From: Candidatus Methanophagaceae archaeon
GTDB taxonomy: Archaea > Halobacteriota > Syntropharchaeia > Alkanophagales > Methanospirareceae
Direction: 5' to 3'
Assembly: GCA_003194425.1 (NCBI GenBank)
Contig: PQXB01000001.1
Location: 1,030,444 to 1,062,443, forward strand
DNA length: 32,000 nucleotides
In this document: positions 1,157-32,000 of the stretch, piece after piece
Position numbering within the stretch: position 1 is the stretch's first letter
How the letters are laid out: the number at the start of each line of letters is the position of its first letter
Notes under the pieces: generated by a model
The model's input: only the letters and a program-made list of their open reading frames with translations
What the model was told of the DNA's origin: nothing
Databases searched by the model: none
Position numbers and translations under genes: made by a program

Positions 1157-1194
1157 ATTTTTTTCACTGCGTCTCATTTTTTTCACTGCGTCTC
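1157..1194. repeat. Perfect 19-bp x2 tandem duplication straddling the stop codon of the 1164-2180 gene
   Basis: ATTTTTTTCACTGCGTCTC occurs at 1157-1175 and again at 1176-1194. The TCA (the TGA stop on the minus strand) at 1164-1166 lies in one copy. Confidence 0.9.
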
Positions 1195-2180
1195 TTTTTC
1201 TTGCTCTCGCCCCCACAATTTGGACAGAACCTGGCTAAAATCGGTCGCAACTCGCCGCACTCCGAGCACTCCTCGAGCAACTGCCGCCCGCAGTTCTGAC
1301 AAAAAAGGGCAGCCACCCCCCCTGCCCCGCTTCGCAGAGGGAAGCCGCACCACGGGCACTTCCCCTCCCTCAAGCGAGAGCGGGAGACGCGCTCGAAGCT
1401 GAAGAGTTGCTTCTTGAGGTAAGCGAGCGTGACAGCACACGCCACTGCTCCGAGAATTGAAATTCCGAGCACGTGCACGAACTTCCACACATTCTCAACA
1501 ATCATAAAAATCAGCAAGAGCGAGGCAAAAGCCAAAAACGCGTTCGCGTGCAGCAGGTACTTGCTCCTCGCCTTTTTCGCCCGCAGGAAGACGAAAATCG
1601 CGACCGCCAAGAGTGGAAGCACAAAAGCCAACCGCACTGCCAAGACCTTCAGTCTGTATTTTTGGTAAGCCCTGTCGTACTCCTCCCGCGCCAACTCACG
1701 AGCCTTGTGCAGCTCTCCCTGCTTTTCGTCCAGCCGCCCCCGAACCTCGTCGTAAACGGCTTGTGCTGCCTCCAGTCTCTCCTGCGACTCGTTGTACCTC
1801 GCCCTCGCCTCTTCCCACTCCCGCTCTTTTACCGCGTCCTCCCCGCCTTTGTCGAGAATTACGCGGTACTCCTCCCTCTTGAACAAATACTTCTCTTTGG
1901 CACTGGAAAATTCCTTCTCCACGTCTGTGAGGGTTTCGCGGGCTGTTCTGAGTTCCGCGGAAATGTTGTCTTTCTCTGCCTTCAACCTGTAGACGCCGTG
2001 TTTTTGGTAGTAAAGGTCGTTTTGGGGTTGGCTGGGGATTTCTTTTAGCTCGTTGAGAATTTGCACGCCGCCGATTAAAAGGAAGACGACCATCGCGGAG
2101 GCGAGTATTTTTTCGCCCCTCGTCGTCTCTGTCCTCTCTTCCTCCCCTTCGCTCGCGTCCTCGCCCTCGTATTTTGGCAT
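1164..2180 (-). CDS. Membrane protein with a long coiled-coil loop and a C-terminal double zinc ribbon; function unknown
   Basis: I prefer the start at ATG 2180 (MPKYEGED...), because the longer track ORF would overlap the upstream gene. Domain order is TM1, about 140 aa of heptad-like E/K/R-rich sequence, 3 TM helices flanked by basic residues, then CPWCG...CQNCG...CSECG...CPNCG. Confidence 0.6.
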   Translation of the reverse strand: MPKYEGEDASEGEEERTETTRGEKILASAMVVFLLIGGVQILNELKEIPSQPQNDLYYQKHGVYRLKAEKDNISAELRTARETLTDVEKEFSSAKEKYLFKREEYRVILDKGGEDAVKEREWEEARARYNESQERLEAAQAVYDEVRGRLDEKQGELHKARELAREEYDRAYQKYRLKVLAVRLAFVLPLLAVAIFVFLRAKKARSKYLLHANAFLAFASLLLIFMIVENVWKFVHVLGISILGAVACAVTLAYLKKQLFSFERVSRSRLREGKCPWCGFPLRSGAGGVAALFCQNCGRQLLEECSECGELRPILARFCPNCGGESKKKRRSEKNETQ

Positions 2181-2211
2181 AATAAAAAAAATAAAAAGCC
2201 GGGGTAAAAAA

Positions 2212-4275
2212 CTAACCCGGCAGTCCAACCTTTCCAATCTCCTCTTTTATCTCGCTCGCGATGCTCTTCGGCGTTTTCTTTGTTTCCGCTCCTGCGTTTT
2301 TGGGTCTAATCGGCTTGTAGCACCAGTAGGTAGTGTCAAAACAAATTATCTCGTTCGTCCCCGGGTCCAACAGTGCGACGCCCCACAACGCACCGAAACT
2401 CTGCTCGCCCCAGTAGCCCACGTAGATTGGGTACGAGAACGTTTGGCTGTAGTCTGCTGGCAAAGTCATTGGCATCGTCGCCATCGTTGTCATAAAATCG
2501 AAGCCCGGAATCGTCAGCCACCACTTGTAAACTACCCACTGCGTAGCGTTCGTCGGGTTTGCAAACTCGATTTCAACGCTCATTGTGTCAAATGTCTTGT
2601 AGTCAGTCTTGTCGGTTGTGACTGAAATGGTCGGCGTTGTTGTTGGCGGCGGTGGTGGCAGCGGAACTGGTCCTGCTGCAGTTTCTACTGTCAGGTCGTA
2701 GAGAGTTGGCGACTTCTCTGTTTCTCCTGAAACAATTTGTAGCGTTGTCTGGACTTGCAGGTAGCGCGCGTTTGGTGTTGAGCTCAGTAGAACGCCGTTT
2801 GTCGCGGTCTCCCACGCGGACCAAGTGGCGTTAGCAGCGGTCTCGTTTGAACTTCTCACTCTGACGGTAAGAGAAGTTCCCGCAGGCTCGTCGCTGTTCC
2901 AAGAGACTTTTCCCCACGCCGTCTCTTCTGCTCCGCTGTCGAAGGTCACTGTCCAGGTGCCTGTTTTCGTTGTTACTGACCTTACCAGGATTCCTGTCAT
3001 ATCGCTGTAGCTGTAGTGCCCGCCGCTGCCAAGAACCTGCTTGGAGAGGTCAATTTCGTCCGTGGCAGGGTCGATTCGGTGAACAAACTCGTCGTCCAGG
3101 TTGCAGACCCAGACCTTGCCGTCTGCGTCCACTGCTACTCCTGTTGGACAGTCTCCGACTGAAATCGTGGCTGAAAGGTTTCCGTCGTTGTCGTGTCGTG
3201 TTACCGTGTCAGACTCGGAGTTTGCTACCCAGACGTTGTTGTCGCTCGTGACTGCTACTCCTCGTGAATTATGTCCGTCAGGAGCGGTTAGCGTCTTTGT
3301 CCAGTCTCTTGTGGCGGTTGCTGTGCTGATTTTCGAGAGCTTGTAGCTGTCCCACCCAGAGGCAAAGAGGTGTCCGAGGTAGTCAAGACCTAAACCGTAG
3401 ACAAAGTGCCCCAGGTCGACCGTACTGACATTTGGCGGGTCTGTCGAAGGGTCAAGTCTTAGTACGTGGTTCTCGTCGTGGCCAGAAGACCAAAGCACGC
3501 CGTTTTCGTCCATCACCGCGCCGTAGGGTTTGTGCCCGGAAGTCGAGACATTCACGGTCTTAAGAATCTCCCCTGTTTCTCCGTCGAGGTAGTAGAACAA
3601 GTGAGAGCCGAAGCACCCGACCCAGACGTTGTTCGCTGCGTCAACCGCGATTGACCGAGGTCCTGACGTCGCACTGTCTGCGTAAGTTCCGTTGTAGTCG
3701 CCAGGAGTGTAGGTGCCTTCGAGACCAGGAATTAGAACCACCTCAAAGAGCACGCACTCGTCCTTGCCCCACGGAAGCATTTCGGCACCCGAGATGTCGC
3801 CGTCTGCGTTGAGGTCTTGAGAGGTCTCTACAACGCCGTTCCCGTTTCTGTCAACGCACTGCCCGTTCTCGTAGAGCCCAATTTTCACTACCGTTCCCGC
3901 CTGCCTGTTGCCGAGCCAGACGTTGCCTTGAAGGTCGACCGTTGTCCTCGAGGGGTAGCCGTTGACATCTTCGGGGCAGGTTCGGTAGCGACCCAGTTCG
4001 TCTCCTGTCGTGGTGTTAAGTTTGGAAGCCGTGTGTTCTTGGTTAGGAACCCAAATGAACGGCAGGGTCGTTGTGTTTTCAGAGAGTTGCAGGAGGTCGT
4101 CTTCGCACTCTACGCCCGTAAGCGTCCCTTCCTCGAAATCTTCGCAAGTGGTGTAAGTCAGAGACGAAGCGGCTGCTGTCGTTGTTGCTGCTGCTAAAAC
4201 GGTTGTAGCCAAAATCGTAGTGAGCAAAATCGCCGTAATTCCTTTTTCTTCTCTTTTCTTTTTGTTGTTGTCCAT
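2212..4275 (-). CDS. Signal-anchored extracellular six-bladed beta-propeller (NHL/Vgb-like repeats) glycoprotein with C-terminal beta-rich domains
   Basis: 687 aa with N-terminal KKKREEKGITAILLTTILATTVLAAATTTAAA. The blade motif occurs six times: GNVWLGN, NNVWVGC, GVLWSSG, HLFASGW, NNVWVAN, GKVWVCN...IDPATDE. There are many N-x-S/T sequons and a PPPPPTTTPT linker. A GGAGGTGA SD lies 8 nt upstream of the ATG at 4275. Confidence 0.7.
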   Translation of the reverse strand: MDNNKKKREEKGITAILLTTILATTVLAAATTTAAASSLTYTTCEDFEEGTLTGVECEDDLLQLSENTTTLPFIWVPNQEHTASKLNTTTGDELGRYRTCPEDVNGYPSRTTVDLQGNVWLGNRQAGTVVKIGLYENGQCVDRNGNGVVETSQDLNADGDISGAEMLPWGKDECVLFEVVLIPGLEGTYTPGDYNGTYADSATSGPRSIAVDAANNVWVGCFGSHLFYYLDGETGEILKTVNVSTSGHKPYGAVMDENGVLWSSGHDENHVLRLDPSTDPPNVSTVDLGHFVYGLGLDYLGHLFASGWDSYKLSKISTATATRDWTKTLTAPDGHNSRGVAVTSDNNVWVANSESDTVTRHDNDGNLSATISVGDCPTGVAVDADGKVWVCNLDDEFVHRIDPATDEIDLSKQVLGSGGHYSYSDMTGILVRSVTTKTGTWTVTFDSGAEETAWGKVSWNSDEPAGTSLTVRVRSSNETAANATWSAWETATNGVLLSSTPNARYLQVQTTLQIVSGETEKSPTLYDLTVETAAGPVPLPPPPPTTTPTISVTTDKTDYKTFDTMSVEIEFANPTNATQWVVYKWWLTIPGFDFMTTMATMPMTLPADYSQTFSYPIYVGYWGEQSFGALWGVALLDPGTNEIICFDTTYWCYKPIRPKNAGAETKKTPKSIASEIKEEIGKVGLPG

Positions 4276-4330
4276 TTTTTTATTTCACCTCCTAATTTTT
4301 TTTGTGCTCCTCTCGCGCATTGGGCGTTCC

Positions 4331-4362
4331 CTTTTCTCTCCTGTCTCTTTTCTCTCCTGTCT
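4331..4362. repeat. Perfect 16-bp x2 tandem duplication in a divergent intergenic region
   Basis: CTTTTCTCTCCTGTCT occurs at 4331-4346 and again at 4347-4362. Confidence 0.85.
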
Positions 4363-4557
4363 CTTTGCCCGTCTGCCTGCTTGGCTGTGTGCTTGCCCGC
4401 GCAAATTCCTTCCCGCGAATTCCTTCTTCTCGCCGCCGCGCACTCAACCAATTTTCCGCTTCTCCTCTCTCCTTCCATTTTCTCGCTCTCGCCCGTGCGA
4501 ATTTTCATCACACAATCTTAAAATAAGACTTTGACTATACAAAGGTAGGAACAATTT

Positions 4558-5553
4558 ATGCGAAAAGATTACGATTTGGTTGTGGTCGGTGCGGGTCCGG
4601 CGGGGCTGACTGCAGGAATTTACGGCGCACGGAGCGGGCTGGAGACGGTGGTGCTGGAGAAGGGGATTTGCGGTGGGTTGTCGAACGAGGCGCCAGAGAT
4701 TGAGAACTACCCGGGGTTCAAGAAGGTCGCGGGTCTGGAATTGGCAGAGCGGATGAAGGAGCAAGCGGCGGAGTTCGCGGAGCTGAAAGAGTTAGAAGCG
4801 GTTGAAAAAATAGAGCAGGTGCGAGGAGAGGAGGGGAAGAGGAGGAAGAAGGTGCGAGGAGAGGAGGAGAAGAGGAGGAAGAAAGAGGAAATGAAGGTAG
4901 TCACCGAGAAAGGCTCTTACGTTGCAAAAGCGGTAATTTTCTGCACAGGAACGCGGCACCGAAAATTAGGGGCAGCGAGGGAGGACGAGTTTCTCGGGCG
5001 GGGCGTCTCCTACTGCGCCACCTGCGACGGCTTCTTCTTCCGCAACAAGCAAGTAGCAGTGGTCGGCGGCGGGGACTCGGCGGTTAGAGAAGCCCTGCAC
5101 CTCAAGAAGCTCGGCTGTGAAGTAACCCTAATTCACCGCCGAGACAAACTCCGAGCAGAGCCGTTTTTGCAGAAGCGACTGAAAGAGGCGGGCGTTCCTG
5201 TCTTGTGGAACTCGGTGGTGCTGGAAATTAAGGGAGACAGCAGAGTGAGGAGCGTTCTCAGATTTGACAAAGAACGAGAGAGCGAGGAGGTGGTTGAGGT
5301 TGAGGGCGTCTTCGTCTCGGTCGGAGAAGAGCCTGCAAACGAGTTGGCGCTGCAACTCGGCGTTGAACTGAACCAAAGCGGCTACGTGGTCACGGACAAA
5401 AACCAAAGGACGAACCTTGAGCGAGTCTACGCCGCGGGCGACCTAACAGGAGGCGTGAGGCAGGTTGTTGTGGCGTGTGCCGAGGGGGCGGTCGCTGCTA
5501 CTTCCGCTTACAACGACTTGCTGGGGTTGGGCGGCGAGGGCGGCGGAAAATGA
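4558..5553 (+). CDS. trxB: Thioredoxin-disulfide reductase
   Basis: Motifs seen are YDLVVVGAGPAGLTAGIY (FAD), the CATCDG redox CxxC, VVGGGDSAVREA (NADPH) and YAAGD. The protein carries an approximately 30-aa charged insert made by a 33-bp duplication. Confidence 0.85.
   Translation: MRKDYDLVVVGAGPAGLTAGIYGARSGLETVVLEKGICGGLSNEAPEIENYPGFKKVAGLELAERMKEQAAEFAELKELEAVEKIEQVRGEEGKRRKKVRGEEEKRRKKEEMKVVTEKGSYVAKAVIFCTGTRHRKLGAAREDEFLGRGVSYCATCDGFFFRNKQVAVVGGGDSAVREALHLKKLGCEVTLIHRRDKLRAEPFLQKRLKEAGVPVLWNSVVLEIKGDSRVRSVLRFDKERESEEVVEVEGVFVSVGEEPANELALQLGVELNQSGYVVTDKNQRTNLERVYAAGDLTGGVRQVVVACAEGAVAATSAYNDLLGLGGEGGGK
4819..4884 (+). repeat. 33-bp x2 in-frame tandem duplication inside trxB
   Basis: GTGCGAGGAGAGGAGGGGAAGAGGAGGAAGAAG is followed by a second copy with 2 mismatches. 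It encodes VRGEEGKRRKK VRGEEEKRRKK. Confidence 0.9.
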
Positions 5554-6284
5554 GAGCGAGAATGCGGGAAATCGGGGTTGACGAAGCAGGAAAAGGTCCA
5601 GTAATTGGCTCGATGTTTGTCGCGGGGGTCTTGAACTTTGAGGGCTTGGAAGGGCTGGGAGTAAGGGATTCGAAGAAAGTAAGCCCGAAGAGGCGGGAAC
5701 TCCTCGCAGGACAAATTGAGGCTGCGACCGAGGTTCGTGTCGTGGAATTGACCGCGAGCGAGATTGACGAGAGCAGAAAGAAGCAGACCTTAAACGAGAC
5801 GATGGTCGAACTCTTCTCTGCAGTGATTTCCTGTTTTCAGCCTCCGCCTGACCGGGCTTTCGTCGACGCTGCAGACGTCAACCCCGCAAGGTTCGCCGCG
5901 AACATTAGAGCCTGCTGCGAGAGGCGAGGAAGGGAAAGGGCAGAGGCAAGGCAAGGGGGAGAGGCAGGGCAAGGGGGAGAGGCAGAAAGAGGACTGGAAA
6001 TTATTTCCGAGTCCAAAGCAGACGAACGCTACCCCGTAGTCAGCGCAGCGTCAATAATCGCAAAACTCCGCCGAGACAGGTCAATTCGGCTGCTCGAGGC
6101 TGAACTCGGTGCTGAAATCGGGAGCGGCTACCCCGCAGACCCGAAGACCGTTCAATTCCTCCGCGGGCTGCTGAACGGTGCAGGGGCGGAAATTCCTCCG
6201 TACGTGCGACACTCTTGGAAAACCGTCAAAACCCTTTCCTCCACAAATTCTTCTTTCCAGCAGCGTCTGAAGGAGTGGCTCTGA
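5550..6284 (+). CDS. rnhB: Ribonuclease HII
   Basis: Motifs seen are GVDEAGKGPVIGSMFVAG, DSKKVSPKRRE, VDAADV and ADERYPVVSAASIIAKLRRD. The start is chosen at an ATGA overlap with the trxB stop; an alternative ATG lies at 5562. The gene contains an 18-bp x2 duplication at 5950-5985. Confidence 0.8.
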   Translation: MRARMREIGVDEAGKGPVIGSMFVAGVLNFEGLEGLGVRDSKKVSPKRRELLAGQIEAATEVRVVELTASEIDESRKKQTLNETMVELFSAVISCFQPPPDRAFVDAADVNPARFAANIRACCERRGRERAEARQGGEAGQGGEAERGLEIISESKADERYPVVSAASIIAKLRRDRSIRLLEAELGAEIGSGYPADPKTVQFLRGLLNGAGAEIPPYVRHSWKTVKTLSSTNSSFQQRLKEWL

Positions 6285-6304: not shown

Positions 6305-7687
6305 CTAAAAGGGTCCCTCTACCCTTTTTACCCTCTTTCGCCCCCTCTCCCTGTCCTCTTCAATCTGCCGCTCGACCGAGAGTAGAGCGTCCTTCAGCAC
6401 CCCAACAAAATCCCACCGCCTCTTTCCTGCCTTCTGCTCGTTCATTTCTTCCTCCCCCTCTGCTACTGCTTGGGTGTGAGAGTGGCTGCCACCGCCACTG
6501 CCAGTGCCACCTGGCTCGCTCTGAGCGACGTACAACTTGTCAGGCGTCTTCACGTGCGCACTGATTTTATAATATGAAATTCCGCCTTTGTCCCGCTCCT
6601 TCTTTAGCACTATTTTTATCCAGTGCACGCGTTTAGCGATTCTAACAATTTTCCGCACCTCGGTTTCGATAATTTTGTCTGCGAGTTCCTTGTGTTCCTC
6701 GTCGAGAGAGCCTTGAATCTCGATATTTATTTTCGCCTTCTCTTTAAGGTCCCGCAGATATTTCATTATGTCGAGAATTGTAACGACTCCTCTCGGAACC
6801 CCCACTCCTTCTCCTTCTTCCCTCCCCTCGCTAACTTCTCCGCTCACGATTGGCACGCCGCGAATGTCGTGCTCTTGCAACAGGCTCGCTACTTCTGCGA
6901 GGCTTGCGTCAGGGCTGGCGGTTGTTACAGGCGAGCTCATAACGAGAGAGACGGGCTGCTCCATTATTGGAATGTTCTCGCCCTTCACCTCGCCGACGGT
7001 CGTCTTTCGCATCGGTTTGTAAATTTTTAAGATGTCTCCGCTGGTAACGATGCCCCGCAATTTCCCGTCCGCGTCGACGACGAGTAGCCGCCCGATGTTG
7101 TTCTTTCGCATAATGCTTCTCGCTCTGCCGATGCTTTCGGTCTCTTCTACGCAGACAAGGTCGCGGGACATTATTTCTGCAGCCTTGACCTCGCTCAAAA
7201 TGACCGACTCCGCCCCGCGTTTCATAAAGTCGTACTCGGAGACGATTCCCACGAGTTTGCCGTCGCCTGCAGTGACTGGCGCTGCCCGCTGCCCGCTGTC
7301 CACCAGCTCGCAGATTGCGTCAAGGGTCGTCGTGTCTTTGTAGACGCAGTGTGGCTTGAACATTACTCCCTCTACACTGGATTCGGGATTTGAGACAACG
7401 AGCAGGTCTTGCATACAAACGTGGTAAATCTCGCTGCAGGCACCTCCTCTTCCGCCTCTTCCTCCCCCTACTCCTCCTTTTCTTCCACTCCTTCCCCCAC
7501 TGCTACTTCCTCCGCTCCTTCTCCCACTGTTACTTCCTCTGCCGCTGCTGTCTCCGTCGCCAGCAAGCACAACCAGGTTGTGGAAGTTGTTTTTTTCCAT
7601 TATCCCAATCGCCTTCGCTACCGAGGTCTCGGGCGTTATTGTGGTTACCTCTCTCGTGCTTATCTCAATTACAGGCTCGTTAAACAT
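6305..7687 (-). CDS. Four-CBS-domain protein with a C-terminal HPF/RaiA (S30AE)-like domain
   Basis: 460 aa. The four CBS motifs include TITPETSVAKAIGIMEKNNFHNLVV, GIVSEYDF, GRLLVVDADGKLRGIVTSGDIL and IRGVPIV. The C-terminal segment INIEIQG..EEHKELADKIIETEVRKIV...VHWIKIVLKKE...YYKISAHVKTP..LYVAQSE...LKDALLSVERQIEE matches the beta-alpha-beta-beta-beta-alpha pattern and the ERQ(L/I) motif of HPF/YfiA. Confidence 0.6.
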   Translation of the reverse strand: MFNEPVIEISTREVTTITPETSVAKAIGIMEKNNFHNLVVLAGDGDSSGRGSNSGRRSGGSSSGGRSGRKGGVGGGRGGRGGACSEIYHVCMQDLLVVSNPESSVEGVMFKPHCVYKDTTTLDAICELVDSGQRAAPVTAGDGKLVGIVSEYDFMKRGAESVILSEVKAAEIMSRDLVCVEETESIGRARSIMRKNNIGRLLVVDADGKLRGIVTSGDILKIYKPMRKTTVGEVKGENIPIMEQPVSLVMSSPVTTASPDASLAEVASLLQEHDIRGVPIVSGEVSEGREEGEGVGVPRGVVTILDIMKYLRDLKEKAKINIEIQGSLDEEHKELADKIIETEVRKIVRIAKRVHWIKIVLKKERDKGGISYYKISAHVKTPDKLYVAQSEPGGTGSGGGSHSHTQAVAEGEEEMNEQKAGKRRWDFVGVLKDALLSVERQIEEDRERGRKRVKRVEGPF

Positions 7688-8646: not shown

Positions 8647-8648
8647 AA

Positions 8649-10007: not shown

Positions 10008-10074
10008 ATTTTTTCGTAGGATTTTTTCGTAGGTAGATCAAAAAACTATTTTTTCGTAGGTAGATCAAAAAACT
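10008..10074. repeat. 27-bp x2 tandem repeat plus a 13-bp partial copy in a convergent intergenic region; each unit carries T6 and A6 runs
   Basis: ATTTTTTCGTAGG occurs at 10008-10020. ATTTTTTCGTAGGTAGATCAAAAAACT occurs at 10021-10047 and again at 10048-10074. Confidence 0.9.
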
Positions 10075-10974: not shown

Positions 10975-11012
10975 GGGAAGGGGGGCGAGTTGAGGGAAGG
11001 GGGGCGAGTTGA
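10975..11012. repeat. Perfect 19-bp x2 G-rich tandem duplication upstream of the fqo operon
   Basis: GGGAAGGGGGGCGAGTTGA occurs at 10975-10993 and again at 10994-11012. Confidence 0.9.
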
Positions 11013-11061
11013 GGGGAGGAGAGAAAAGAAAAAGCGAAAAAAGCGTGAAAAAATCGAAACT

Positions 11062-17205: not shown

Positions 17206-17222
17206 AAAGAAAAAAGAAAAAG

Positions 17223-19712: not shown

Positions 19713-19784
19713 GAAAGGAGAGGTAAAAGGAGAAGTAAAAGGAGTGGTGAAAGGAGTGGTGAAAGGAGTGGTGAAGAAGGAGAG
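19713..19784 (+). repeat. Degenerate 12-bp x6 purine-rich repeat (GAAAGGAGTGGT family) filling the nuoBCD-nuoH spacer
   Basis: The units read GAAAGGAGAGGT, AAAAGGAGAAGT, AAAAGGAGTGGT, GAAAGGAGTGGT, GAAAGGAGTGGT, GAAGAAGGAGAG. Every unit contains an SD-like GGAG. Confidence 0.85.
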
Positions 19785-19791
19785 CTAAAAA

Positions 19792-20931: not shown

Positions 20932-20980
20932 AGGGAGTGGTGTAGAGGGAGTAGTGTAGAGGGAGTAGTGTAGGTAGAGT
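20911..20980 (+). repeat. 14-bp x5 tandem repeat containing the nuoH stop codon
   Basis: GGTGTAGAGGGAGT occurs at 20911, 20925 and 20939 (perfect), at 20953 (1 mismatch) and at 20967 (3 mismatches). The nuoH TAG at 20929-20931 lies inside unit 2. Confidence 0.9.
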
Positions 20981-20999
20981 AAGGAAGAGAGGTGTAAAT

Positions 21000-23978: not shown

Positions 23979-24041
23979 CGGGAAAGAGCGGGAAAGAGTG
24001 GGAAAGGGCGGGGAAGGGTGCTGGGGGGGTGAGGGGGGTGG
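23979..24041 (+). repeat. G-rich tract in a convergent intergenic region: four approximately 10-bp units followed by G7 and G6 runs
   Basis: The sequence reads CGGGAAAGAG CGGGAAAGAG TGGGAAAGGG CGGGGAAGGG TGCTGGGGGGGTGAGGGGGGTGG. It has eight runs of 3 or more G within 62 nt, between the HD stop (23972) and the rpl24 stop (24042). Confidence 0.85.
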
Positions 24042-24401: not shown

Positions 24402-24512
24402 CTCCTCAAACTACCCCAACCCTCGCCTTCACTCTGCCGAAGGTCGTTTTCATTTCAATTATCCTTATCTTCGTCCTCTTCGCTTTCATTTCCGTTTCTT
24501 CTGTTCTTTTTC

Positions 24513-24550: not shown

Positions 24551-25900
24551 ATGCTTAAGCTTAAGTACGATGTCGTCGTCGTAGGCGGCGGTCCGGCAGG
24601 CTGCATTGCAGCGAAATACGCAGCGAAGTCCGGGGCTTCTACACTGCTCCTCGAGGAGCATTCTGAAATCGGCGAGCCTGTTCAGTGCGCAGGACTTCTA
24701 AGCCGGAGGGCTGTGGAAGAGAGCGAACTGCGAGAGACTAAAGCCTTCGTGAACTGCGAGTTAAAGGGCGCGGTTCTTTACCCTCCCTCACACGCCCTCA
24801 CTCACGCCCTCGCCCCTGCCCCCTCCTCTGCCCCCTCCTCTGCCCCCTCCTCTGCTCACGCCTCTGCTCACGAACTGAGAATTGAGTCTCCTCCGTCGTC
24901 AGGGAAAAGGGCGTTCGCAGTGAGCAGGAGTGCGTTTGACAAGGAACTGGCGAGAGCGGCGCAGAAAGCGGGAGCGGAAATAATTCTAAAGACCAAAGTC
25001 AAGGCGGTGAAGAAGAAGGCAGGGGAGGCGGGGAAGGCGGGGCTAACGGTAAGCACGGCGGGAGAAGGGGAAATCGGGGCACGAGTCGTCGTCGGTGCGG
25101 ACGGCGTGAGGAGTGTTGTCGCAAAGACCGCGGGGGCGGGGCGGGAGGTCACAAAAAACTTTTTGACCTGCGTGCAAATTGAAGGAAAATACGAGGTAGA
25201 CGAGCCTTTTGCAGAGATTTTCGTGGGCAGAACCGTCGCACCGGGCTTCTTTGCCTGGGCAATTCCGCTCGGAGAAAGTTCTGGCACTGCCCGAATCGGG
25301 CTCTGCATTGACAGAAGGTTCTCACCCAGTCCCAGCCCTCTGCCGTTTTTAAAGAAACTTTTGTCAAACCACCCTGTCGTCGCCAAGAAATTCAACGGCA
25401 CCCGACTGAACCTTACCCGACTAAACCTTACGGCGGGGAGAATTCCCCTCGCTCTCCCTCGACCACAAACGACGGTAAAGACGGTAAAAGACGGCGGAGC
25501 AGGGGTGCTGCTGGTCGGGGACGCGGCAGCGCAAGTCAAGCCAGTTACAGGCGGAGGCGTCTACTACGGTCTGAAGTGCGGAAAAATTGCGGGGCAGACG
25601 GCGGCAAAGGCGTGCTTGAGCGGGGACGCGGAAGTGCTGCGGGAGTACGAAGAGCGGTGGCAGAAGGAAATCGGGCAGGAAATCGCGTTCGGGCTGAAAA
25701 TTCACAGGCTGAGGTGCGTGCTCAGCGACAGGGACTTTAACGCACTCTGCAAAGCAGTCTCAAAATACGACCTGACGCGGCTTTTAACAGACTACGGGGA
25801 CATTGACTACCCCTCGCTCGCGTTTCGTGAAGTCTTGAAAAATCCCGGAATCATCAAATTAATGGCGAAAAATGTCATAAAATATTTATATGCAAAATAA
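24551..25900 (+). CDS. Geranylgeranyl reductase family flavoprotein (digeranylgeranylglycerophospholipid reductase-like)
   Basis: Motifs seen are YDVVVVGGGPAGCIAAKYAAKSGASTLLLEE, PVQCAGLLS, VVGADGVRSVVA and LVGDAAAQVKPVTGGGVYYG. Two repeat-derived inserts are present. Confidence 0.8.
   Translation: MLKLKYDVVVVGGGPAGCIAAKYAAKSGASTLLLEEHSEIGEPVQCAGLLSRRAVEESELRETKAFVNCELKGAVLYPPSHALTHALAPAPSSAPSSAPSSAHASAHELRIESPPSSGKRAFAVSRSAFDKELARAAQKAGAEIILKTKVKAVKKKAGEAGKAGLTVSTAGEGEIGARVVVGADGVRSVVAKTAGAGREVTKNFLTCVQIEGKYEVDEPFAEIFVGRTVAPGFFAWAIPLGESSGTARIGLCIDRRFSPSPSPLPFLKKLLSNHPVVAKKFNGTRLNLTRLNLTAGRIPLALPRPQTTVKTVKDGGAGVLLVGDAAAQVKPVTGGGVYYGLKCGKIAGQTAAKACLSGDAEVLREYEERWQKEIGQEIAFGLKIHRLRCVLSDRDFNALCKAVSKYDLTRLLTDYGDIDYPSLAFREVLKNPGIIKLMAKNVIKYLYAK
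24791..24877 (+). repeat. Chain of 12-bp in-frame duplications inside the reductase gene
   Basis: CACGCCCTCACT and CACGCCCTCGCC occupy 24791-24814. GCCCCCTCCTCT occurs 3 times at 24818-24853. GCTCACGCCTCT and GCTCACGAACTG occupy 24854-24877. Together they encode HALTHALAPAPSSAPSSAPSSAHASAHE. A second locus at 25400-25429 is ACCCGACTGAACCTT x2 with 1 mismatch (TRLNLTRLNL). Confidence 0.9.
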
Positions 25901-25957: not shown

Positions 25958-26506
25958 ATGGCGAGGATGTACGCGAGGAGAAGGGGGAAATCAGGTTCTA
26001 ACCGCCCGTTTAACTTTAGCCAGAGGGCTGCGGCTCAAGTGGCACCTGAGTGGGCGGGCTTGGGCTTGACAGCGGAGGAAGTGGAGACGAGAGTGGTTGA
26101 CCTGTACAACCAAGGACGTTCGACGAGCGAAATCGGAATTACGCTGCGGGACAGCCACGGCGTGCCGAGCGTTGTAGTGCGGACAGGGAAGAAAATAACG
26201 AAGATTTTGAAGGAGCGGGGAGTTGTGCCTGGGTCTGCTGGGACTGGGACTGGGTCTGGGACTGGGTCTGGGTCTGGGACTGGGTCTGGGTCAGAACTAC
26301 CCGAGGACCTTCAGAATTTGATGCGAAAAGCGTTGAAAATACGGAGGCACCTTGAAGAGAACAGGAAAGATCTGCACAACAAAAGGGCGTTGCAGTTGGT
26401 GGAATCCAAGATTAGACGGCTTACGAAGTACTACACGAGGAAGAAAGTCATACCTGCAGAGTGGCGGTACAAACCGGGGGCTGCAGAATTTGTGATGATG
26501 CGGTGA
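25958..26506 (+). CDS. rps15: 30S ribosomal protein uS15 (S15P/S13e)
   Basis: The sequence is MARMYARRRGKSGSNRP...EEVETRVVDLYNQGRSTSEIGITLRDSHGVPSV...LPEDLQNLMRKALKIRRHLEENRKDLHNKRALQLVESKIRRLTKYY. A GAGGAG SD lies upstream. Confidence 0.85.
   Translation: MARMYARRRGKSGSNRPFNFSQRAAAQVAPEWAGLGLTAEEVETRVVDLYNQGRSTSEIGITLRDSHGVPSVVVRTGKKITKILKERGVVPGSAGTGTGSGTGSGSGTGSGSELPEDLQNLMRKALKIRRHLEENRKDLHNKRALQLVESKIRRLTKYYTRKKVIPAEWRYKPGAAEFVMMR
26231..26293 (+). repeat. GGGTCT/GGGACT hexamer run in-frame inside rps15
   Basis: It encodes GSAGTGTGSGTGSGSGTGSGS, inserted just before the conserved LPEDL motif. Confidence 0.85.
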
Positions 26507-26593
26507 AACGGGAAAAGGGAAACAGGAAAGGGGAAAGAGAGAAGAAAAGATGAACTTGGAAAATGAAGGCAGGAAAGAAGGAGGATTTTAACG

Positions 26594-26947
26594 GTGGGCA
26601 CGGTTAAACCGAGGTACATAAAAAGATTGGGACAGCAGTTGCTGAGGGACGTGCAGGCGTTCACGGACGACTTCGAGCTGAACAAGAAGTTAGTGACTGA
26701 GAACACGAACATTGAGAGCAAGGGCATAAGAAACCGAGTGGCGGGCTACATTACTCACAAGAAGAAGAGGACGCAGGAGGAAGCCGAAGAAGTTGAAGAA
26801 TTAGTAGTAGAGGCAGCAGCGGAAGTTGAAGAAACGAAAGAAGCCGAAGAAGTTGAGGTAGCAGCGGAAGTTGAAGAAACGAAGGAAGTAGAAGAAACGA
26901 AGGAAGTAGAAGAAGTTGAGGAGGAGGGGAAAGGAGGGGGGAGTTAA
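26594..26947 (+). CDS. rps17e: 30S ribosomal protein eS17 with a long acidic repeat tail
   Basis: GTG start. MGTVKPRYIKRLGQQLLRDVQAFTDDFELNKKLVTENTNIESKGIRNRVAGYITHKKKR is the conserved eS17 core. About 58 extra residues of E/V/A/K/T follow, built from 45-bp x2 (26816 and 26861) and 18-bp x2 (26874-26909) repeats. Confidence 0.8.
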   Translation: MGTVKPRYIKRLGQQLLRDVQAFTDDFELNKKLVTENTNIESKGIRNRVAGYITHKKKRTQEEAEEVEELVVEAAAEVEETKEAEEVEVAAEVEETKEVEETKEVEEVEEEGKGGGS

Positions 26948-26948
26948 A

Positions 26949-27860
26949 ATGTTAAAATTAGAATTAGAAGGTGTGTATCCGGCGCTGATAACACCGTTTA
27001 CGAGGGACGACGAGGTGGACGAGGAAGGTCTGAGGCGGCTCGTAGAGTTCGTGGTTGAAGGAGGTGTCGCAGGAATCGTCCCGTGTGGCACGACCGGGGA
27101 GTCCGCGACGCTTTCGCAGGAGGAGCACGAGCGTGTGATTGATGTTGTGGTGGACTGTTCGAGGGTACCGGTGATCGCAGGCACGGGCTCGAACAACACG
27201 AAGGAGGCGGTAGAGTTCTCGAAGTACGCGGAGGACGCGGGTGCTGACGCGTGCCTCTTGATTACGCCGTACTACAACAAGCCAAATGTGCGGGGATTGA
27301 AGGAGCATTTCAAGAGGATTGGGGACGCGGTGGAGCTGCCGTTAATTTTGTACAACATTCCCTCGAGGACGGGTCAAAATGTGAGTGCAGGGACGATGCT
27401 GGAGCTTGCGGCTGAGGTGGAGGGAATAAAGGGCGTGAAGGAGGCGTCTGGGGATTTGAAGCAGGTGGGTGCGATTTTAAGCGAGGTCGCGGAGCAGGGT
27501 TTGGATTTTACGGTTCTCGCAGGCGACGATTTTCTTACGCTTCCGATAATGAGTCTTGGCGGTAAGGGCGTGATTTCGGTGGCTGCGAATGTCGTGCCGC
27601 GGGAGATGTGCGAGATGGTGGACGCGGTGTTGAGCGGGGCGGCGGAGAAGGCGAGGGAGATTAATGTTAGGCTGTTCTCGTTGTTTGAGGCGATGTTTCT
27701 GGAGACGAATCCGATACCGGTGAAGAAGGCGGCGGAGATGCTGGGTTTGGTGGCGGCAGGGGCTGTTAGGCTTCCGTTGGGTAAGTTGAGTGAGGGGAAC
27801 AGGGCGAAGTTGAGGGAGGTGCTGGAGGGGTTGGGGAAGATGAGGGGTTGGGGAAGATAA
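26949..27860 (+). CDS. dapA: 4-hydroxy-tetrahydrodipicolinate synthase
   Basis: Motifs seen are GVYPALITPFTRDDEVDEEGL, IVPCGTTGESATLSQEEH, ITPYYNKP, ILYNIPSRTG and GVKEASGD. Confidence 0.85.
   Translation: MLKLELEGVYPALITPFTRDDEVDEEGLRRLVEFVVEGGVAGIVPCGTTGESATLSQEEHERVIDVVVDCSRVPVIAGTGSNNTKEAVEFSKYAEDAGADACLLITPYYNKPNVRGLKEHFKRIGDAVELPLILYNIPSRTGQNVSAGTMLELAAEVEGIKGVKEASGDLKQVGAILSEVAEQGLDFTVLAGDDFLTLPIMSLGGKGVISVAANVVPREMCEMVDAVLSGAAEKAREINVRLFSLFEAMFLETNPIPVKKAAEMLGLVAAGAVRLPLGKLSEGNRAKLREVLEGLGKMRGWGR
27825..27858 (+). repeat. Perfect 17-bp x2 tandem duplication forming the dapA 3' end and stop codon
   Basis: GAGGGGTTGGGGAAGAT occurs at 27825-27841 and again at 27842-27858. Copy 1 reads EGLGK, copy 2 is read frame-shifted as RGWGR, and the TAA at 27858-27860 starts in the last base of copy 2. 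Confidence 0.9.
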
Positions 27861-28109
27861 GGGGGATATAAAATTTTTGGTAGTGCTTAAGCGACTTGGA
27901 TTCTGCGAGTGTTGCCGGCATTGTCGCACCGGTCGCACCGGCGAAGGACGGTGTGTCTTCTCGGTGATTTATAAAACGCATTTAGGTCTTCCTAGCCTGA
28001 AGGGCAGGGGCAAAAATTCCTTGCGAGAAAAAGAGCGTTCGTTACTTTTAACTGATAAAATATTTTAGATTTTTGCTGCGGAGGGTAGGGTAGAAGCGGG
28101 AAGAAGGGG

Positions 28110-29146: not shown

Positions 29147-30436
29147 ATGACCTCCGCAACGATAAAATGGCTGAAGGGAAGGGAGATTTTGGACTCGCGT
29201 GGAAATCCGACCGTTGAGGTAGAGGTGCGAACAGAGAGCGGTTTTGGCAGGGCGAGCGTGCCTTCTGGTGCGTCCACGGGAAGCAAAGAGGCGTGGGAGA
29301 AGCGAGACGGCGAGAAAAATCGGTTCGGCGGCAAAGGAGTTCTTAAAGCCGTTGAAATCGTGAACACGGTGGTAAGAGAAGAATTGTTGGGGCGGAACGC
29401 TCTCGAGCAGCGGGAAATCGACGACATTTTAATCGCACTCGACGGGACCGAGAACAAGGAGCGGTTGGGGGCGAACGCTCTTCTCGGGACTTCGATGGCG
29501 GTCTGCAAGGCGGCTGCGGACTCGCTAAAAAAACCGCTCTTTAAATATCTTCGCGAGGAGGTTGTCAAAATGAAATCACAATTTGAACTCCCGACGCCGA
29601 TGATGAATGTGATAAACGGCGGTAAGCACGCTGGCAACGAGCTGAGCATTCAGGAGTTTCTTATTCTGCCCCTAGGTTTTGAGCGGTTCAGCGAGAAGTT
29701 GAGGTTCAGCGAGAAGTTGAGAGCAGGCGTCGAGACCTACCACGCTCTTAAAAAGGTCTTGGAGCGGAAGCCGAGGTACGGGAAGGCAGCCACGAATGTC
29801 GGGGACGAGGGTGGCTACGCACCGCAAATGCGTGAGACGACGGAGGCACTCGAGGCGGTTGTAGAGGCAGTAAGCGAGGCAGGTTACTCGGAAACCGAAA
29901 TACGGCTCGGCGTTGACGCTGCGGCTTCGAGCTTCTTTGACCTCGAGACGCGGAAATACAAAATTGACGGCGTCGAGAAGGACGGCTCTGAACTGATTGA
30001 TTTTTACGAGGGGCTTGTGGAAAAATACCCGTTAGAACTGCTGGAGGACCCGTTTGAGGAGGACTCGTTCGGGCTGTTCGCGGAACTGACGGCTAAAACC
30101 AAGATGCAGCGGAAAATAATCGTCGGCGACGACCTCTTCGTCACAAATGTCAAGCGACTTCGGGAGGGCGTAAAAAAGAAGGCGGCGAACGCGGTTCTCC
30201 TGAAGTTGAACCAAATTGGCACTGTCTCGGAGACGCTGGAGACTGTTAGGTTGGCGGGAGAGAGCGGGTACAAGAAGGTCGTCAGCCACAGGTCTGGCGA
30301 GACCGAAGACACTTTCATCGCGGATTTCGCGGTCGCGATAAACGCGGAGATAATAAAAACCGGCGCCCCTGCAAGAAGCGAGCGAACCTGCAAATACAAC
30401 CAACTGCTGCGGATTGAGGAGGCGTTGACTGAGTAG
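29147..30436 (+). CDS. eno: Enolase (phosphopyruvate hydratase)
   Basis: Motifs seen are GREILDSRGNPTVEVEV, ASVPSGASTGSKEA, NVINGGKHAGN, GDEGGYAP, IVGDDLFVTN, LLKLNQIGTVSE and SHRSGETED. Confidence 0.9.
   Translation: MTSATIKWLKGREILDSRGNPTVEVEVRTESGFGRASVPSGASTGSKEAWEKRDGEKNRFGGKGVLKAVEIVNTVVREELLGRNALEQREIDDILIALDGTENKERLGANALLGTSMAVCKAAADSLKKPLFKYLREEVVKMKSQFELPTPMMNVINGGKHAGNELSIQEFLILPLGFERFSEKLRFSEKLRAGVETYHALKKVLERKPRYGKAATNVGDEGGYAPQMRETTEALEAVVEAVSEAGYSETEIRLGVDAAASSFFDLETRKYKIDGVEKDGSELIDFYEGLVEKYPLELLEDPFEEDSFGLFAELTAKTKMQRKIIVGDDLFVTNVKRLREGVKKKAANAVLLKLNQIGTVSETLETVRLAGESGYKKVVSHRSGETEDTFIADFAVAINAEIIKTGAPARSERTCKYNQLLRIEEALTE
29685..29720 (+). repeat. Perfect 18-bp x2 in-frame duplication inside eno
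   Basis: GGTTCAGCGAGAAGTTGA occurs at 29685-29702 and again at 29703-29720. It encodes (R)FSEKL(R)FSEKL. Confidence 0.9.
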
Positions 30437-30492
30437 AGACAGAGAAGTTGAGACAGAGAAGTTGAGACAGAGAAGTTGAGACAGAGAAGTTG
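30437..30492 (+). repeat. Perfect 14-bp x4 tandem repeat starting at the base after the eno stop codon
   Basis: AGACAGAGAAGTTG occurs at 30437, 30451, 30465 and 30479. The eno TAG is at 30434-30436. Confidence 0.95.
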
Positions 30493-30518
30493 ATGGAGTA
30501 GAAACAGGGACAAGGAGA

Positions 30519-31550
30519 ATGCCCGCGTCCGCGTCCGTGTCAGTCGTAATTTGCACGCACCGAAGCGAGAGGTTTGGGGATTTTTTAGAGGCGGTAGAGA
30601 GCCTGAAAGCCCAATCTTTCACCACTTGCGGCGACTACGTGAACCTTGACCTTGAAATCGTCGTGGTCGTGGACGGGAACAGGGAGTTGTTTGAGCGGAT
30701 TTTAAAAGCTGGAGTTGTGGGACAGGAGCAGGGGGTAAAAACGATTTTGAACGAGCAGAATTTGGGTCTTTCAGAAAGCAGGAACAGGGGCATAAAAGAG
30801 GCGAAAGGAGATGTAATTGCGTTCTTCGACGACGACGCGGTTGCGGACAAGAAATGGCTGCGGGAGTTGCTGAGGGCGTACAGTGAGGGGGAAGAAGAGG
30901 TGGGAAGAGTAGCGAAGTTGAGCGGTGCGATCGCGGCAGGTGGAAAAATCCTGCCGATGTGGATTTCAAACTCAAATACAAAGACAAAGTCAGGGAGGCC
31001 GAAATTTCTGCCAGAGGAGTTTTACTGGCTGCTCGGGGTGACGCACAAGGGGTTTGCCGAGAGCGAAGGTTCCGGGGGGCTGGTAGAGGTGCGGAACACC
31101 TTCGGGTCGAACCTCAGTTTCAAAGCAGAGGTCTTGAGGGCGTTGGGCGGGTTCAGGACGGAAATGGGCGTGAAAGGGCGGAGAGGGCTTTTGCAGGGCG
31201 AGGAGACAGAGCTGTGCGAGCGAATGCGGGAACGGTTCGGACAGGGCGTCGTTTACAACCCTGCGGCAGTTGTTTACCACAAAATCTACCCAGAGCGGTT
31301 GAAACTGCGGTTTCTCTTGCGGCGAGCTTTCTGGCAGGGCTACTCAAAACGAATGATGAAAGAGGCGGGCTCTTCGGTGAGCGAGGAGGAGAAGTTTGTG
31401 CGGGTTTTGTTTGGTGGCGTCGTTGAGAGGCTAAAAGCGAAGTCGTTGGTCGCGTTCGGGCAGTTGGCGGTTCTGCTGCTTCTTACTTCTGCTGTGGGCT
31501 TGGGGTATTTTTTTAAATTTTTTAAAGGCAAAAAAATCATAAAAAAGTAA
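30519..31550 (+). CDS. Glycosyltransferase family 2 with a C-terminal membrane anchor
   Basis: Motifs seen are VSVVICTHRSERFGDFLEAVESL, VVVDGN, LGLSESRNRGIKEAKGDVIAFFDDDAVAD and a C-terminal hydrophobic helix LAVLLLLTSAVGLGYFF. Confidence 0.75.
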   Translation: MPASASVSVVICTHRSERFGDFLEAVESLKAQSFTTCGDYVNLDLEIVVVVDGNRELFERILKAGVVGQEQGVKTILNEQNLGLSESRNRGIKEAKGDVIAFFDDDAVADKKWLRELLRAYSEGEEEVGRVAKLSGAIAAGGKILPMWISNSNTKTKSGRPKFLPEEFYWLLGVTHKGFAESEGSGGLVEVRNTFGSNLSFKAEVLRALGGFRTEMGVKGRRGLLQGEETELCERMRERFGQGVVYNPAAVVYHKIYPERLKLRFLLRRAFWQGYSKRMMKEAGSSVSEEEKFVRVLFGGVVERLKAKSLVAFGQLAVLLLLTSAVGLGYFFKFFKGKKIIKK

Positions 31551-31563
31551 AAAAGCATAAAAA

Positions 31564-32000
31564 ATGCGTCGCAGAATAATCTGGGTAAGACCTCGTAAAG
31601 AGAAAAATATCAGCATTGACCGAGGCAGAATTGCAGAGAAATTAGAGGAAAGGGGAAAATTAGAGGAAAGGGGAAACTATGAAGTTGTGGTTAAAACTGG
31701 AATTGATTTTGGTCTGCTAAAACTACTTCTCTTTGGCAGGTACGATTGTTTGGTTGGCACGACGAGAATTGGTGCAGTTGCTGGACTGCTTGCCAAGATG
31801 CGGGCTAAAAAAGTCTTTATTGACCACGTTGACCCGATCGAGCAGTTTAGAGTAACCGACGGTAGGTTTAAGGCAAGGGTGGTAGAAGGTGTCGAGAATT
31901 TAGCTTTTCGTTTTTCTGACGCTGTCTTTCTTACGAATGAGGAAGATAAGCTAAGAGTAAGCAAAAGAGCGAAAAAAATGATAGTATCAAGATTAGGAAT
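31564..32000 (+). CDS. Partial CDS (N-terminus; runs off window end), GT-B (GT4/group 1-like) glycosyltransferase
   Basis: Hand translation from the ATG at 31564 gives MRRRIIWVRPRKEKNISIDRGRIAEKLEERGKLEERGNYEVVVKTGIDFGLLKLLLFGRYDCLVGTTRIGAVAGLLAKMRAKKVFIDHVDPIEQF..., which stays open to the window end. It is not in the track because it has no stop. A perfect 18-bp x2 duplication lies at 31639-31674. Confidence 0.5.
   Translation, partial: MRRRIIWVRPRKEKNISIDRGRIAEKLEERGKLEERGNYEVVVKTGIDFGLLKLLLFGRYDCLVGTTRIGAVAGLLAKMRAKKVFIDHVDPIEQFRVTDGRFKARVVEGVENLAFRFSDAVFLTNEEDKLRVSKRAKKMIVSRLG

Follow-up and report, generated by a model that had tools for sequence, protein, structure and literature searches.

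A 32,000-nt stretch of contig PQXB01000001.1 from a Candidatus Methanophagaceae (ANME-1) archaeon (GenBank assembly GCA_003194425.1, positions 1,030,444 to 1,062,443; hereafter the window) carries short tandem duplications, within and between its genes, at a density far above the prokaryotic norm. We consider it probable that the window represents a lineage in which short tandem duplications (units of about 6-45 bp) arise de novo at a much increased rate, and that these duplications are born during DNA synthesis, irrespective of reading frame, and are afterwards filtered by selection. Three observations carry this reading. The repeats are genuine, of recent origin and still changing among strains; the raised density is confined to one species-level ANME-1 lineage; and frameshifting events are missing from genes, while units of any length accumulate in spacers and over stop codons.

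Tandem duplications in the window greatly exceed chance expectation

An exact scan for runs in which s[i] = s[i+p], with a unit of at least 9 bp and at least two copies, found 25 separate perfect tandem repeat loci in the 32-kb window. Chance would provide 0.25-0.4 such loci, and never more than 2 were obtained in Markov simulations of order 1, 3 and 5 or in 60-bp local shuffles. Units of at least 12, 15 and 18 bp were present at 18, 14 and 10 loci, respectively, and at none in the simulations. Tandem Repeats Finder (TRF) returned 100 rows over the window, and those with a period of at least 6 and a score of at least 50 amount to 26 arrays occupying 4.3% of its bases. About 19-20 of the ~30 genes contain at least one repeat. 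A preliminary description of the same DNA had proposed dense tandem duplications over most genes, which the 25 perfect loci against 0.3 expected bear out, and the 13 examples that it listed inside open reading frames (ORFs) were all recovered at their positions. Its remark that the copies are mostly 100% identical proved somewhat overstated: it holds for rnhB, eno and the GT4 gene (18/18 each), for nuoN (18/18, then 15/18) and for the 15-bp x4 (15/15, 15/15 and 14/15) and 12-bp (12/12) repeats of FpoBCD, and fails for trxB (31/33), nuoI (15/18), the 15-mer of the geranylgeranyl reductase (GGR) gene (14/15), the 45-mer of eS17 (37/45) and the AAA gene (13/15). By TRF, some arrays are perfect and others have fallen to 72-89% identity (loci 16742, 19714, 7480 and 26806), and this spread from 100% to 72% points to a long-running process of birth, expansion and decay rather than to a single burst. 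The word 'burst' of the preliminary description is accordingly not quite apt.

The loci are given below by window coordinates and, where applicable, strand (L007, L009, L011 and L092 are contigs of near-identical strains).

475-508, minus strand: a pair of neighbouring perfect 9-bp x2 repeats, in a Yip1-family membrane protein at its C-terminal tail (PGPGGPGPRGPR; exact scan, Pfam)
1157-1194, minus strand: 19-bp x2 perfect duplication over the stop and last codons of a zinc-ribbon protein, unit not divisible by 3 (exact scan)
4331-4366, no strand: intergenic perfect repeat, 16-bp x2.25, in the spacer of two divergent genes (exact scan)
4817-4883, plus strand: TrxB 33-bp x2 (31/33), VRGEEGKRRKK twice, with extra residues relative to the thioredoxin reductase 5mh4 (TRF, structure alignment)
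5926-5985, plus strand: RNase HII 18-bp array, a perfect x2 at 5950-5985 inside 3.4 imperfect copies, within a ~22-aa insert relative to the T. kodakarensis enzyme
7480-7539, minus strand: 27-bp x2.2 (87% identity) that forms a G/S/R-rich insert of the 4xCBS protein, older and decaying (TRF)
10008-10074, no strand: nested 13-bp x2 and 27-bp x2 perfect duplications in a convergent intergenic spacer, where L092 has a different 20-bp duplication
10975-11015, no strand: 19-bp x2.2 perfect, in the intergenic region that precedes the first fpo membrane-subunit gene, with an extra 6-bp repeat in L092
13392-13427, plus strand: 15-bp x2.4 perfect, forming the G/V/L-rich C-terminal tail of an FpoM-type subunit, where L092 has a different 15-bp duplication
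15775-15827, plus strand: FpoN 18-bp x2.9 perfect (GEGVRK repeats), before the Proton_antipo_M match, one copy fewer in L092
16742-16789, plus strand: C-terminal tail of FpoN, a degenerate 12-bp x4 array (72% identity), older (TRF)
18000-18058, plus strand: FpoBCD 15-bp x3.9 perfect (GSGSS x4), separating module B from module C, with one copy less in L092
18215-18263, plus strand: FpoBCD 12-bp x2.1 and 9-bp x2.1 perfect, within the 30-kDa domain match, the 12-mer single-copy in L092
19714-19790, no strand: 12-bp x6.2 array (83% identity; perfect x3.2 at 19738-19775) that fills the FpoBCD-FpoH spacer, copy number different in L011
20909-20989, plus strand: 14-bp array over the FpoH stop codon, ~1-6 copies among strains, FpoH being 379 or 367 aa
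21630-21665, plus strand: FpoI 18-bp x2 (15/18), AEGVLE/AEGVLR
22654-22675, plus strand: FrhB/FpoF-like protein 9-bp x2.4 perfect (exact scan)
23979-24020, no strand: 10-bp array (perfect x2; 3.8 copies at 85%), intergenic after the HD-domain gene, copy number different in L009 and L011
24785-24877, plus strand: GGR chain of 12-bp repeats giving a 26-aa A/P/S-rich insert, strain-polymorphic and lacking in ANME-1-THS, Methanospirareceae and PDB 3oz2
25400-25431, plus strand: GGR 15-bp x2.1 (14/15), TRLNL twice, where relatives have one copy's worth
25471-25488, plus strand: GGR 9-bp x2 perfect (exact scan)
26238-26292, plus strand: uS15 6/12/18-bp array encoding a GS/GT linker that is inserted between the two domains and predicted to be disordered, with at least 9 length alleles
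26806-26919, plus strand: eS17 45-bp x2 (37/45) and 18-bp x2.3 perfect, giving an acidic ~50-aa C-terminal tail, 1-3 18-mers among strains
27825-27858, plus strand: last codons of DapA, 17-bp x2 perfect, 1 or 2 copies among strains
27923-27941, no strand: 9-bp x2.1 perfect, intergenic, variant in L007
28159-28190, plus strand: AAA_22-like protein near its N-terminus, 15-bp x2 (13/15; TRF 15 x1.9)
29685-29721, plus strand: enolase 18-bp x2 perfect (RFSEKL twice)
30436-30493, no strand: 14-bp x4.1 perfect array from the enolase stop codon on, 2-4 copies among strains
31509-31526, plus strand: C-terminal tail of GT2, 9-bp x2 perfect (FFKFFK; exact scan)
31639-31676, plus strand: GT4 near its N-terminus, 18-bp x2.1 perfect, the gene being cut by the window end

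The raised repeat density is confined to one ANME-1 lineage

The best database matches of the window enolase are 98% identical proteins of 423 aa (429 aa in the window) labelled 'ANME-1 cluster archaeon ex4572_4', after which identity falls to 79%, with other Methanophagales. In the NCBI taxonomy ex4572_4 belongs to Candidatus Methanophagaceae, and it originates from hydrothermal sediment of the Guaymas Basin (PMC5569505). By these protein matches, the source of the window is a species-level Methanophagaceae (ANME-1) lineage of methane-oxidising archaea like the Guaymas Basin ex4572_4. Identity steps from 98% straight to 79-84% (63% for uS15), which places the lineage on a long, unsampled branch. 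Its GC content is ~53%, with a strongly purine-loaded coding strand, and that of its nearest BcrAD relatives (80-84% identity; L093-L103) is 41-45%.

For comparison we used 11 close-strain contigs, 10 of them retrieved through the 423-aa enolase and one through the BcrAD protein, which derive from samples other than that of the window (ENA assemblies made with MEGAHIT and SPAdes, two JGI metagenomes, one NCBI metagenome-assembled genome (MAG) and Logan) and are 97.8-99.7% identical to it. The 429-aa enolase with the duplication was found by exact-protein look-up only in the Logan assembly of SRR6664617 (L001), and the TrxB-RNase HII-CBS segment of the window is also present in SRR6664617 (L160). 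Other ANME-1 were represented by 65 metagenome loci retrieved through BcrAD at 50-99% identity, with density classes computed for those below 90%; the TRF value of this group refers to 52 of the 65 loci (at least 63% identity) together with L158 and L159 (478 kb), and all other ANME-1 add up to ~550 kb. Synteny beyond the DUF2112-BcrAD pair is not kept in these BcrAD loci, so they yielded density data only, without comparison of Fpo orthologues. A contig of ANME-1-THS (L161, 52% GC) and one of a Methanospirareceae MAG (L162, 55% GC) served as syntenic controls, and 80 unrelated bacterial and archaeal enolase loci among the matches listed (1.33 Mb) as the background control.

Perfect loci with units of at least 9 bp occur in the window at 0.78/kb and those with units of at least 12 bp at 0.56/kb, and TRF arrays, on 4.3% of bases, at 0.81/kb. 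The corresponding values are 0.48-0.89/kb, 0.32-0.56/kb (contigs of at least 12 kb) and 0.75/kb in the sister strains (98-99% identity), ~0-0.1/kb, essentially 0 and 0.048/kb in other ANME-1, and 0.056/kb, 0.011/kb and 0.097/kb in the background control. The density is 14-50x that of normal prokaryotic DNA. In the strains, the 8.5 kb downstream of the window still contain 0.24-0.59 repeats per kb, including strain-specific ones. Within the 5-kb syntenic block TFE-HD-uL24-GGR-uS15-eS17-DapA the window has 7 perfect loci; ANME-1-THS has 0 in its whole 6.3-kb contig and Methanospirareceae 2 in 17.5 kb. Thermophily or high GC as a sufficient cause was ruled out, since these two relatives do without such repeats. 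The preliminary description had taken the density to be unusual, and it does exceed the norm of the clade (0.5-0.9/kb in this lineage against 0-0.1/kb in other ANME-1). A full-text literature search gave no report of pervasive tandem duplication for ANME-1 chromosomes; variants of up to 50 bp were excluded from a 2026 study of variable hotspots in ANME-1.

Duplications within genes preserve the reading frame

Classified by the gene map, 30 distinct perfect repeats comprise 18 within ORFs, 4 at gene edges and 8 in intergenic regions. Unit length is divisible by 3 in 18 of the 18 in-ORF repeats as against 3 of the 12 that are non-coding or straddle a stop codon (one-sided hypergeometric P ~1.5e-5, our own arithmetic from the counts). 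None of the four repeats over a stop or last codon (19, 14, 17 and 14 bp) has a unit divisible by 3, and three of the eight intergenic ones do. Non-coding DNA, ~10% of the window, holds 12 of the 30 repeats, that is ~3.7/kb compared with 0.63/kb in coding DNA. Together, the frame and density patterns indicate a mutational input blind to frame, from which frameshifts and roughly half of the in-frame events have been removed. The peptides encoded by in-ORF repeats would mostly be tolerated by-products and not designed features.

A different explanation is that the repeats are kept for their use, as proposed for the Borgs, extrachromosomal elements of Methanoperedens, which is likewise a methane-oxidising archaeon. 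In-ORF repeats would then supply new disordered regions or tails that alter interactions, and intergenic ones would serve regulation, for example through the duplicated ribosome-binding-site-like GGAGG motifs in the fpo operon. The in-frame rule and the perfect copies recall the Borgs, where the authors infer strong selection; besides, four consecutive Fpo membrane subunits have repeats at their C-terminal tails, and the uS15 and eS17 inserts occur in every strain, with variable length. However, the in-frame rule is equally explained by the loss of frameshifting events, and the non-coding repeats, ~6x denser, show no frame preference. Alleles with and without a given repeat coexist in near-identical strains, the affected proteins are unrelated housekeeping enzymes that share no common type of peptide, and the orthologues of other thermophilic ANME-1 manage without the inserts. 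Maintenance for use is, on this evidence, decidedly improbable as the general explanation.

Repeats turn over among near-identical strains

Multiple alignment of the window from 19.1 to 32 kb with the close-strain contigs revealed 22 indel blocks, 15 of which are of repeat type: among them are the 12-mer at 19726, the 14-mer at 20919 (~1-6 copies), the 10-mer at 23989, the GGR 12-mers, the uS15 hexamer/18-mer, the eS17 18-mer (1-3 copies), the DapA 17-mer (1 or 2) and the 14-mer after enolase (2-4). L092 differs from the window by 12 indel blocks, all but one of repeat type, and 111 single-nucleotide polymorphisms (SNPs) stand beside 11 repeat indels in 13.4 kb, a rate of about one repeat indel per 10 SNPs. 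L092 also has duplications that the window lacks, for example one of 20 bp at the fpoJ-fpoK junction. At 10008-10074 the window has duplications of 13 and 27 bp and L092 one of 20 bp with different boundaries, and around 13387 two different 15-mers are duplicated in the window and in L092; different duplications at one spot in strains 0.8% apart in SNPs imply independent origins at hot spots. The enolase 18-mer duplication is private to the window and the Logan assembly of SRR6664617, and is absent from 10 close strains and from all orthologues. As a consequence of this variation, called protein lengths differ among strains (uS15 170-186 aa; eS17 105-117 aa; GGR 439-449 aa; DapA 301-303 aa; FpoH 367 or 379 aa), and for uS15 at least 9 length alleles occur in the lineage (170-182 aa). 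Changes of 1 bp in homopolymers account for only 2 of the 34 inter-strain indel blocks (the 22-block alignment plus L092), and this rarity is not the signature of mismatch-repair loss.

Presence/absence and copy-number differences among strains 98-99% identical indicate that the repeats are young. The proposal of an active process, as opposed to ancient fixed inserts, is therefore upheld: close strains differ at the loci, and distant ANME-1 orthologues are without the segments. A sequencing, amplification or assembly artefact can be regarded as extremely improbable. Short-read assemblers can miscount units, and a run of N interrupts one close-strain contig at a repeat. On the other hand, 11 contigs from many samples and several assemblers show these loci again, often in equal copy number, and the enolase duplication appears again in the independent Logan assembly. 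The arrays are shorter than 100 bp and should be shorter than typical Illumina reads, control contigs from the same pipelines contain 14-50x fewer repeats, and the frame rule cannot arise from an artefact.

Three of the strain contigs have peculiarities of their own. In L009, an NCBI MAG scaffold, the run of N (window position ~22869) coincides exactly with the GTGTA/12-mer repeat that follows the FrhB-like gene, which suggests that such repeats break or confuse short-read scaffolding. In L010 (ERZ1742239 NODE_581) a 5.4-kb segment (positions 1-5460) of 39.7% GC, against 54% elsewhere, replaces the synteny upstream of GGR; it encodes Vps4-like AAA, Snf7/PspA-like and tubulin-family proteins and contains no perfect tandem repeats. 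This segment is either a recent island, which would fit repeats accruing with residence time, or a chimeric join. L011 has an AT-rich insertion of 464 + 82 bp at ~4866-5372, between uL24 and GGR (window ~24497-24512), with a 168-aa minus-strand ORF that has no Pfam match.

Location of the repeat-encoded peptides in proteins

Where comparison was possible, the in-ORF repeats appear as insertions in loops, linkers or C-terminal tails that are absent from orthologues. In alignments with known structures, extra residues were found in TrxB (aligned region ~70-108, against 5mh4), RNase HII (~22 residues between aligned residues 120 and 150, against 2dfh), uS15 (~20 residues exactly between the S13_N and S15 domains, against 9o17), GGR (~24 residues, against 3oz2) and enolase (6 residues, against 2pa6). 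The uS15 insert is absent from all other ANME-1, Syntrophoarchaeales and Methanosarcinales sequences examined (152-157 aa in the alignment). Longer uS15 entries elsewhere (162-192 aa) were considered as further repeats and rejected, being N-terminal gene-call extensions. The eS17 protein has 117 aa in the window and 64-68 aa in relatives, and the difference corresponds to the acidic tail built of repeats.

The AlphaFold model of enolase, with a confident fold (predicted template modelling score, pTM, 0.88), places the duplicated RFSEKL in the loop before helix 187-207, and the region of the duplication holds the only segment of the model with a predicted local distance difference test score (pLDDT) below 50 (residues 180-182). 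In uS15, whose model is poor as a whole (pTM 0.37), the insert (residues 93-111) is predicted to be disordered. A second, non-repetitive insertion specific to the lineage, AAQ... and GL, occupies uS15 residues 23-34 (window 26021-26062) and is predicted with low confidence; an older repeat that has decayed completely may be its origin.

Gene content of the window and the fpo operon

Pfam assigned the left half of the window to Yip1, a zinc-ribbon protein, an NHL/SGL propeller, TrxB, RNase HII, a 4xCBS protein, DUF2112, a BcrAD/BadFG ATPase and a GT2. These are followed by Fpo genes (K, M, L, N and H subunits, an FpoBCD fusion and FpoI) and an FrhB-like protein, and the right half encodes TFE, HD, uL24, GGR, uS15, eS17, DapA, an AAA_22-like protein, enolase, a GT2 and a GT4. 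The sole RNA gene found in the window by Rfam and ARAGORN is a tRNA-Val (GAC) at 357-429 on the minus strand.

FpoB, FpoC and FpoD (Oxidored_q6, Complex1_30kDa and Complex1_49kDa) form a single fused protein at 17202-19709, an 835-aa ORF in the window that is called as 816-819 aa in sister strains, with two repeat-built linkers between or within modules. An FrhB/FpoF-like gene lies 3' of fpoI. Nearly all gene junctions of the fpo operon have a G/A/T-rich repeat (11563, 13392-13427, 15367-15396, 16742-16789, 19714-19790 and 20909-20989) that doubles as the G/V/L-rich C-terminal tail of the preceding membrane subunit. Several of these units contain Shine-Dalgarno-like GGAGG/GGTG motifs, and copy number may thereby alter translational coupling. 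Between uS15 and eS17, other ANME-1 have a 76-aa ORF (L161:3838-4068; L162:10491-10721); the spacer of the window (26506-26594) has only 88 bp, the 76-aa gene being missing or moved.

Origin of the duplications

Every unit of at least 12 bp is unique to its own locus in the window, on both strands, which means that the units are copies of local sequence and not of a dispersed element. On the coding strand they are rich in purines (68% versus 56% in random windows, P < 0.0005), with A at 31.5% versus 24.6%, G at 36.9% versus 31.4% and both C and T lowered. This bias tracks gene orientation: units in or near minus-strand genes are pyrimidine-rich on the plus strand. Homopurine tracts of at least 12 nt overlap 6 of the 25 loci, with 2.3 expected (P = 0.03), a weak effect. 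Microhomology, taken as the bases beyond whole copies, was measured at the 20 two-copy loci and amounts to 0 nt at 9 of them, 1 nt at 6 and at least 3 nt at 4.

The duplications thus arise from local sequence anywhere in the DNA, regardless of reading frame, and more often in purine-rich, structure-poor stretches. We propose that, at birth, a short stretch would be copied twice during replication or repair-patch synthesis, largely independently of microhomology; candidate steps are template re-use or a displaced flap retained in Okazaki-fragment maturation or in long-patch repair. Existing arrays gain and lose copies, presumably by ordinary slipped-strand mispairing, and slowly decay by point mutation. 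The underlying cause would be a change in the replication or repair machinery specific to the lineage. A link from purine richness through heat-driven depurination to repair-patch synthesis is speculation.

Several points weigh against this proposal. The genic purine bias could partly reflect the peptides that are tolerated and not a mutational preference. Hairpin-driven slippage had to be rejected, single-copy units with their flanks folding less readily than random windows (-0.049 versus -0.074 +/- 0.0095 kcal/mol per nt), as had G-quadruplexes as a general driver, the motif being near only 4 of 25 loci, inside arrays, and probably their product. The births do not resemble classical slippage between short direct repeats: microhomology is near chance, with a small excess of longer matches. 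The putative molecular cause is deduced from the repeats, and since ~50 kb of the genome were covered, the genome-wide extent would be an extrapolation. Of the 'genome-wide slippage or duplication process' of the preliminary description, the active process is retained, with an extent shown over ~50 kb. Slippage is a doubtful candidate for the birth step, most new duplications being without microhomology.

The low microhomology also bears on break repair, in which opposite-strand nicks 6-45 bp apart, or a staggered cut by a nuclease, integrase or transposase, would leave 5' overhangs that are filled in before the ends are rejoined. An end-joining or nicking activity would in that case be an acquisition of the lineage, possibly by way of a mobile element. 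That most two-copy duplications have 0-1 nt of microhomology fits this explanation, as do units that consist of local sequence and hot-spot boundaries that differ between strains, and an integrase-like alternative to slippage was also raised for the Borgs (PMC9879509). Unit lengths are, however, spread continuously over 6-45 bp, where a single transposase or integrase would give target-site duplications of fixed size, and among the genes of the window and its flanks none was recognised as coding for a nuclease, an integrase or end joining. Staggered breaks should also leave many deletions, yet non-repeat indels are few, and end-joining systems are rare in archaea. Break repair is for these reasons unlikely, and duplication during replication or repair synthesis is the origin that we favour.

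Relation to Borg repeats and other known systems

The nearest precedent, and so far the sole description of such a pattern, concerns the tandem repeats of Borgs. These are perfect, unique to their locus and present in ORFs and intergenic regions (Schoelmerich et al. 2023, PMC9879509). Their units are A-enriched and always divisible by 3 in ORFs, compared with 14-38% in intergenic regions; their copy number varies within populations, and they are 'virtually absent' from the host Methanoperedens (PMC9879509). At a criterion of at least 3 units and at least 50 nt, their density is ~0.06 regions/kb, or 0.62% of the genome (PMC9879509). The window has much in common with them: perfect repeats in genes and spacers far above chance, with locus-unique units; in-ORF units that are all divisible by 3 (18/18) and others that mostly are not (3/12 non-genic); copy number that varies among close relatives, related genomes being virtually free of repeats; repeats that may start inside the end of an ORF; enrichment of one base class; and low-complexity, disordered in-ORF peptides.

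There are also differences. A Borg is a giant linear extrachromosomal element, whereas the window belongs to a cellular ANME-1 chromosome. Its genes include those for uS15, eS17, uL24, TFE, the Fpo complex, enolase and tRNA-Val, MAG contigs of ANME-1 share its synteny, and among enolases its own falls with those of Methanophagales. The targets are core housekeeping genes (ribosomal proteins, Fpo complex, enolase, RNase HII), with no enrichment of extracellular proteins, and the bias is towards purines (A+G) and not A alone. Most arrays here have 2-3 copies, so that the Borg criterion retains 2 loci in the window (0.06/kb, 0.37%) and 0 in 142 kb of sister strains.

Other systems are similar in part. 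In Plasmodium falciparum, a eukaryote with an extremely AT-rich genome, a lineage-wide bias adds repetitive, biased and strain-polymorphic peptides to the loops of conserved enzymes, mostly codon-level homopolymers and many of them old inserts. Both cases add biased, strain-polymorphic inserts to enzymes, although the units here are 9-45 bp of mixed sequence in an archaeon of 53% GC. Yeast deficient in rad27/FEN1 produces short tandem duplications (tens of bp, within about 5-100 bp) during DNA synthesis, flanked by direct repeats of 3-12 bp; size (6-45 bp here) and local origin are similar, but microhomology here is mostly 0-2 nt. Microsatellite instability under mismatch-repair deficiency, which is slippage of 1-4 bp units, is unlike the present case, in which most indels involve units of 6-45 bp. 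With bacterial variable-number tandem repeats and contingency loci the window shares copy-number shifts between close strains at fixed loci; those, however, are few per genome, affect surface or virulence genes or promoters and are often frameshifting, while the repeats described here are everywhere, always in-frame in genes, and hit housekeeping targets.

In a survey of 117,861 genomes, archaea had the lowest short-tandem-repeat density, with no enrichment over simulated genomes (PMC12699852). Pervasive perfect tandem repeats have so far been treated as a hallmark of Borgs, virtually absent from cellular archaeal genomes. What is new here is a repeat density far above the norm on a cellular archaeal chromosome, in ribosomal, respiratory and glycolytic genes, which by the Borg criterion itself is Borg-like in the window only. 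The process is therefore not tied to extrachromosomal elements, and repeat-rich and repeat-free sister lineages with shared syntenic genes offer a natural contrast for finding its cause. The repeats also reveal how far core proteins tolerate in-frame insertion, eS17 being nearly doubled and uS15 existing in at least 9 length alleles. On the practical side, the loci are ready strain markers for thermophilic Guaymas ANME-1, and they warn that variation of gene length and C-terminus in such MAGs has biological causes. A further idea, which we advance tentatively and hold to be possible though doubtful, is that an activity encoded by the cell (a variant or lost component of replication or repair synthesis, and not one encoded by an element) writes Borg-like repeats into all DNA replicated in the lineage. 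If this were true, comparison with the repeat-free sisters would identify the enzyme of microhomology-independent short tandem duplication, and it would bear on whether the repeats of Borgs come from host-type or element-type machinery.

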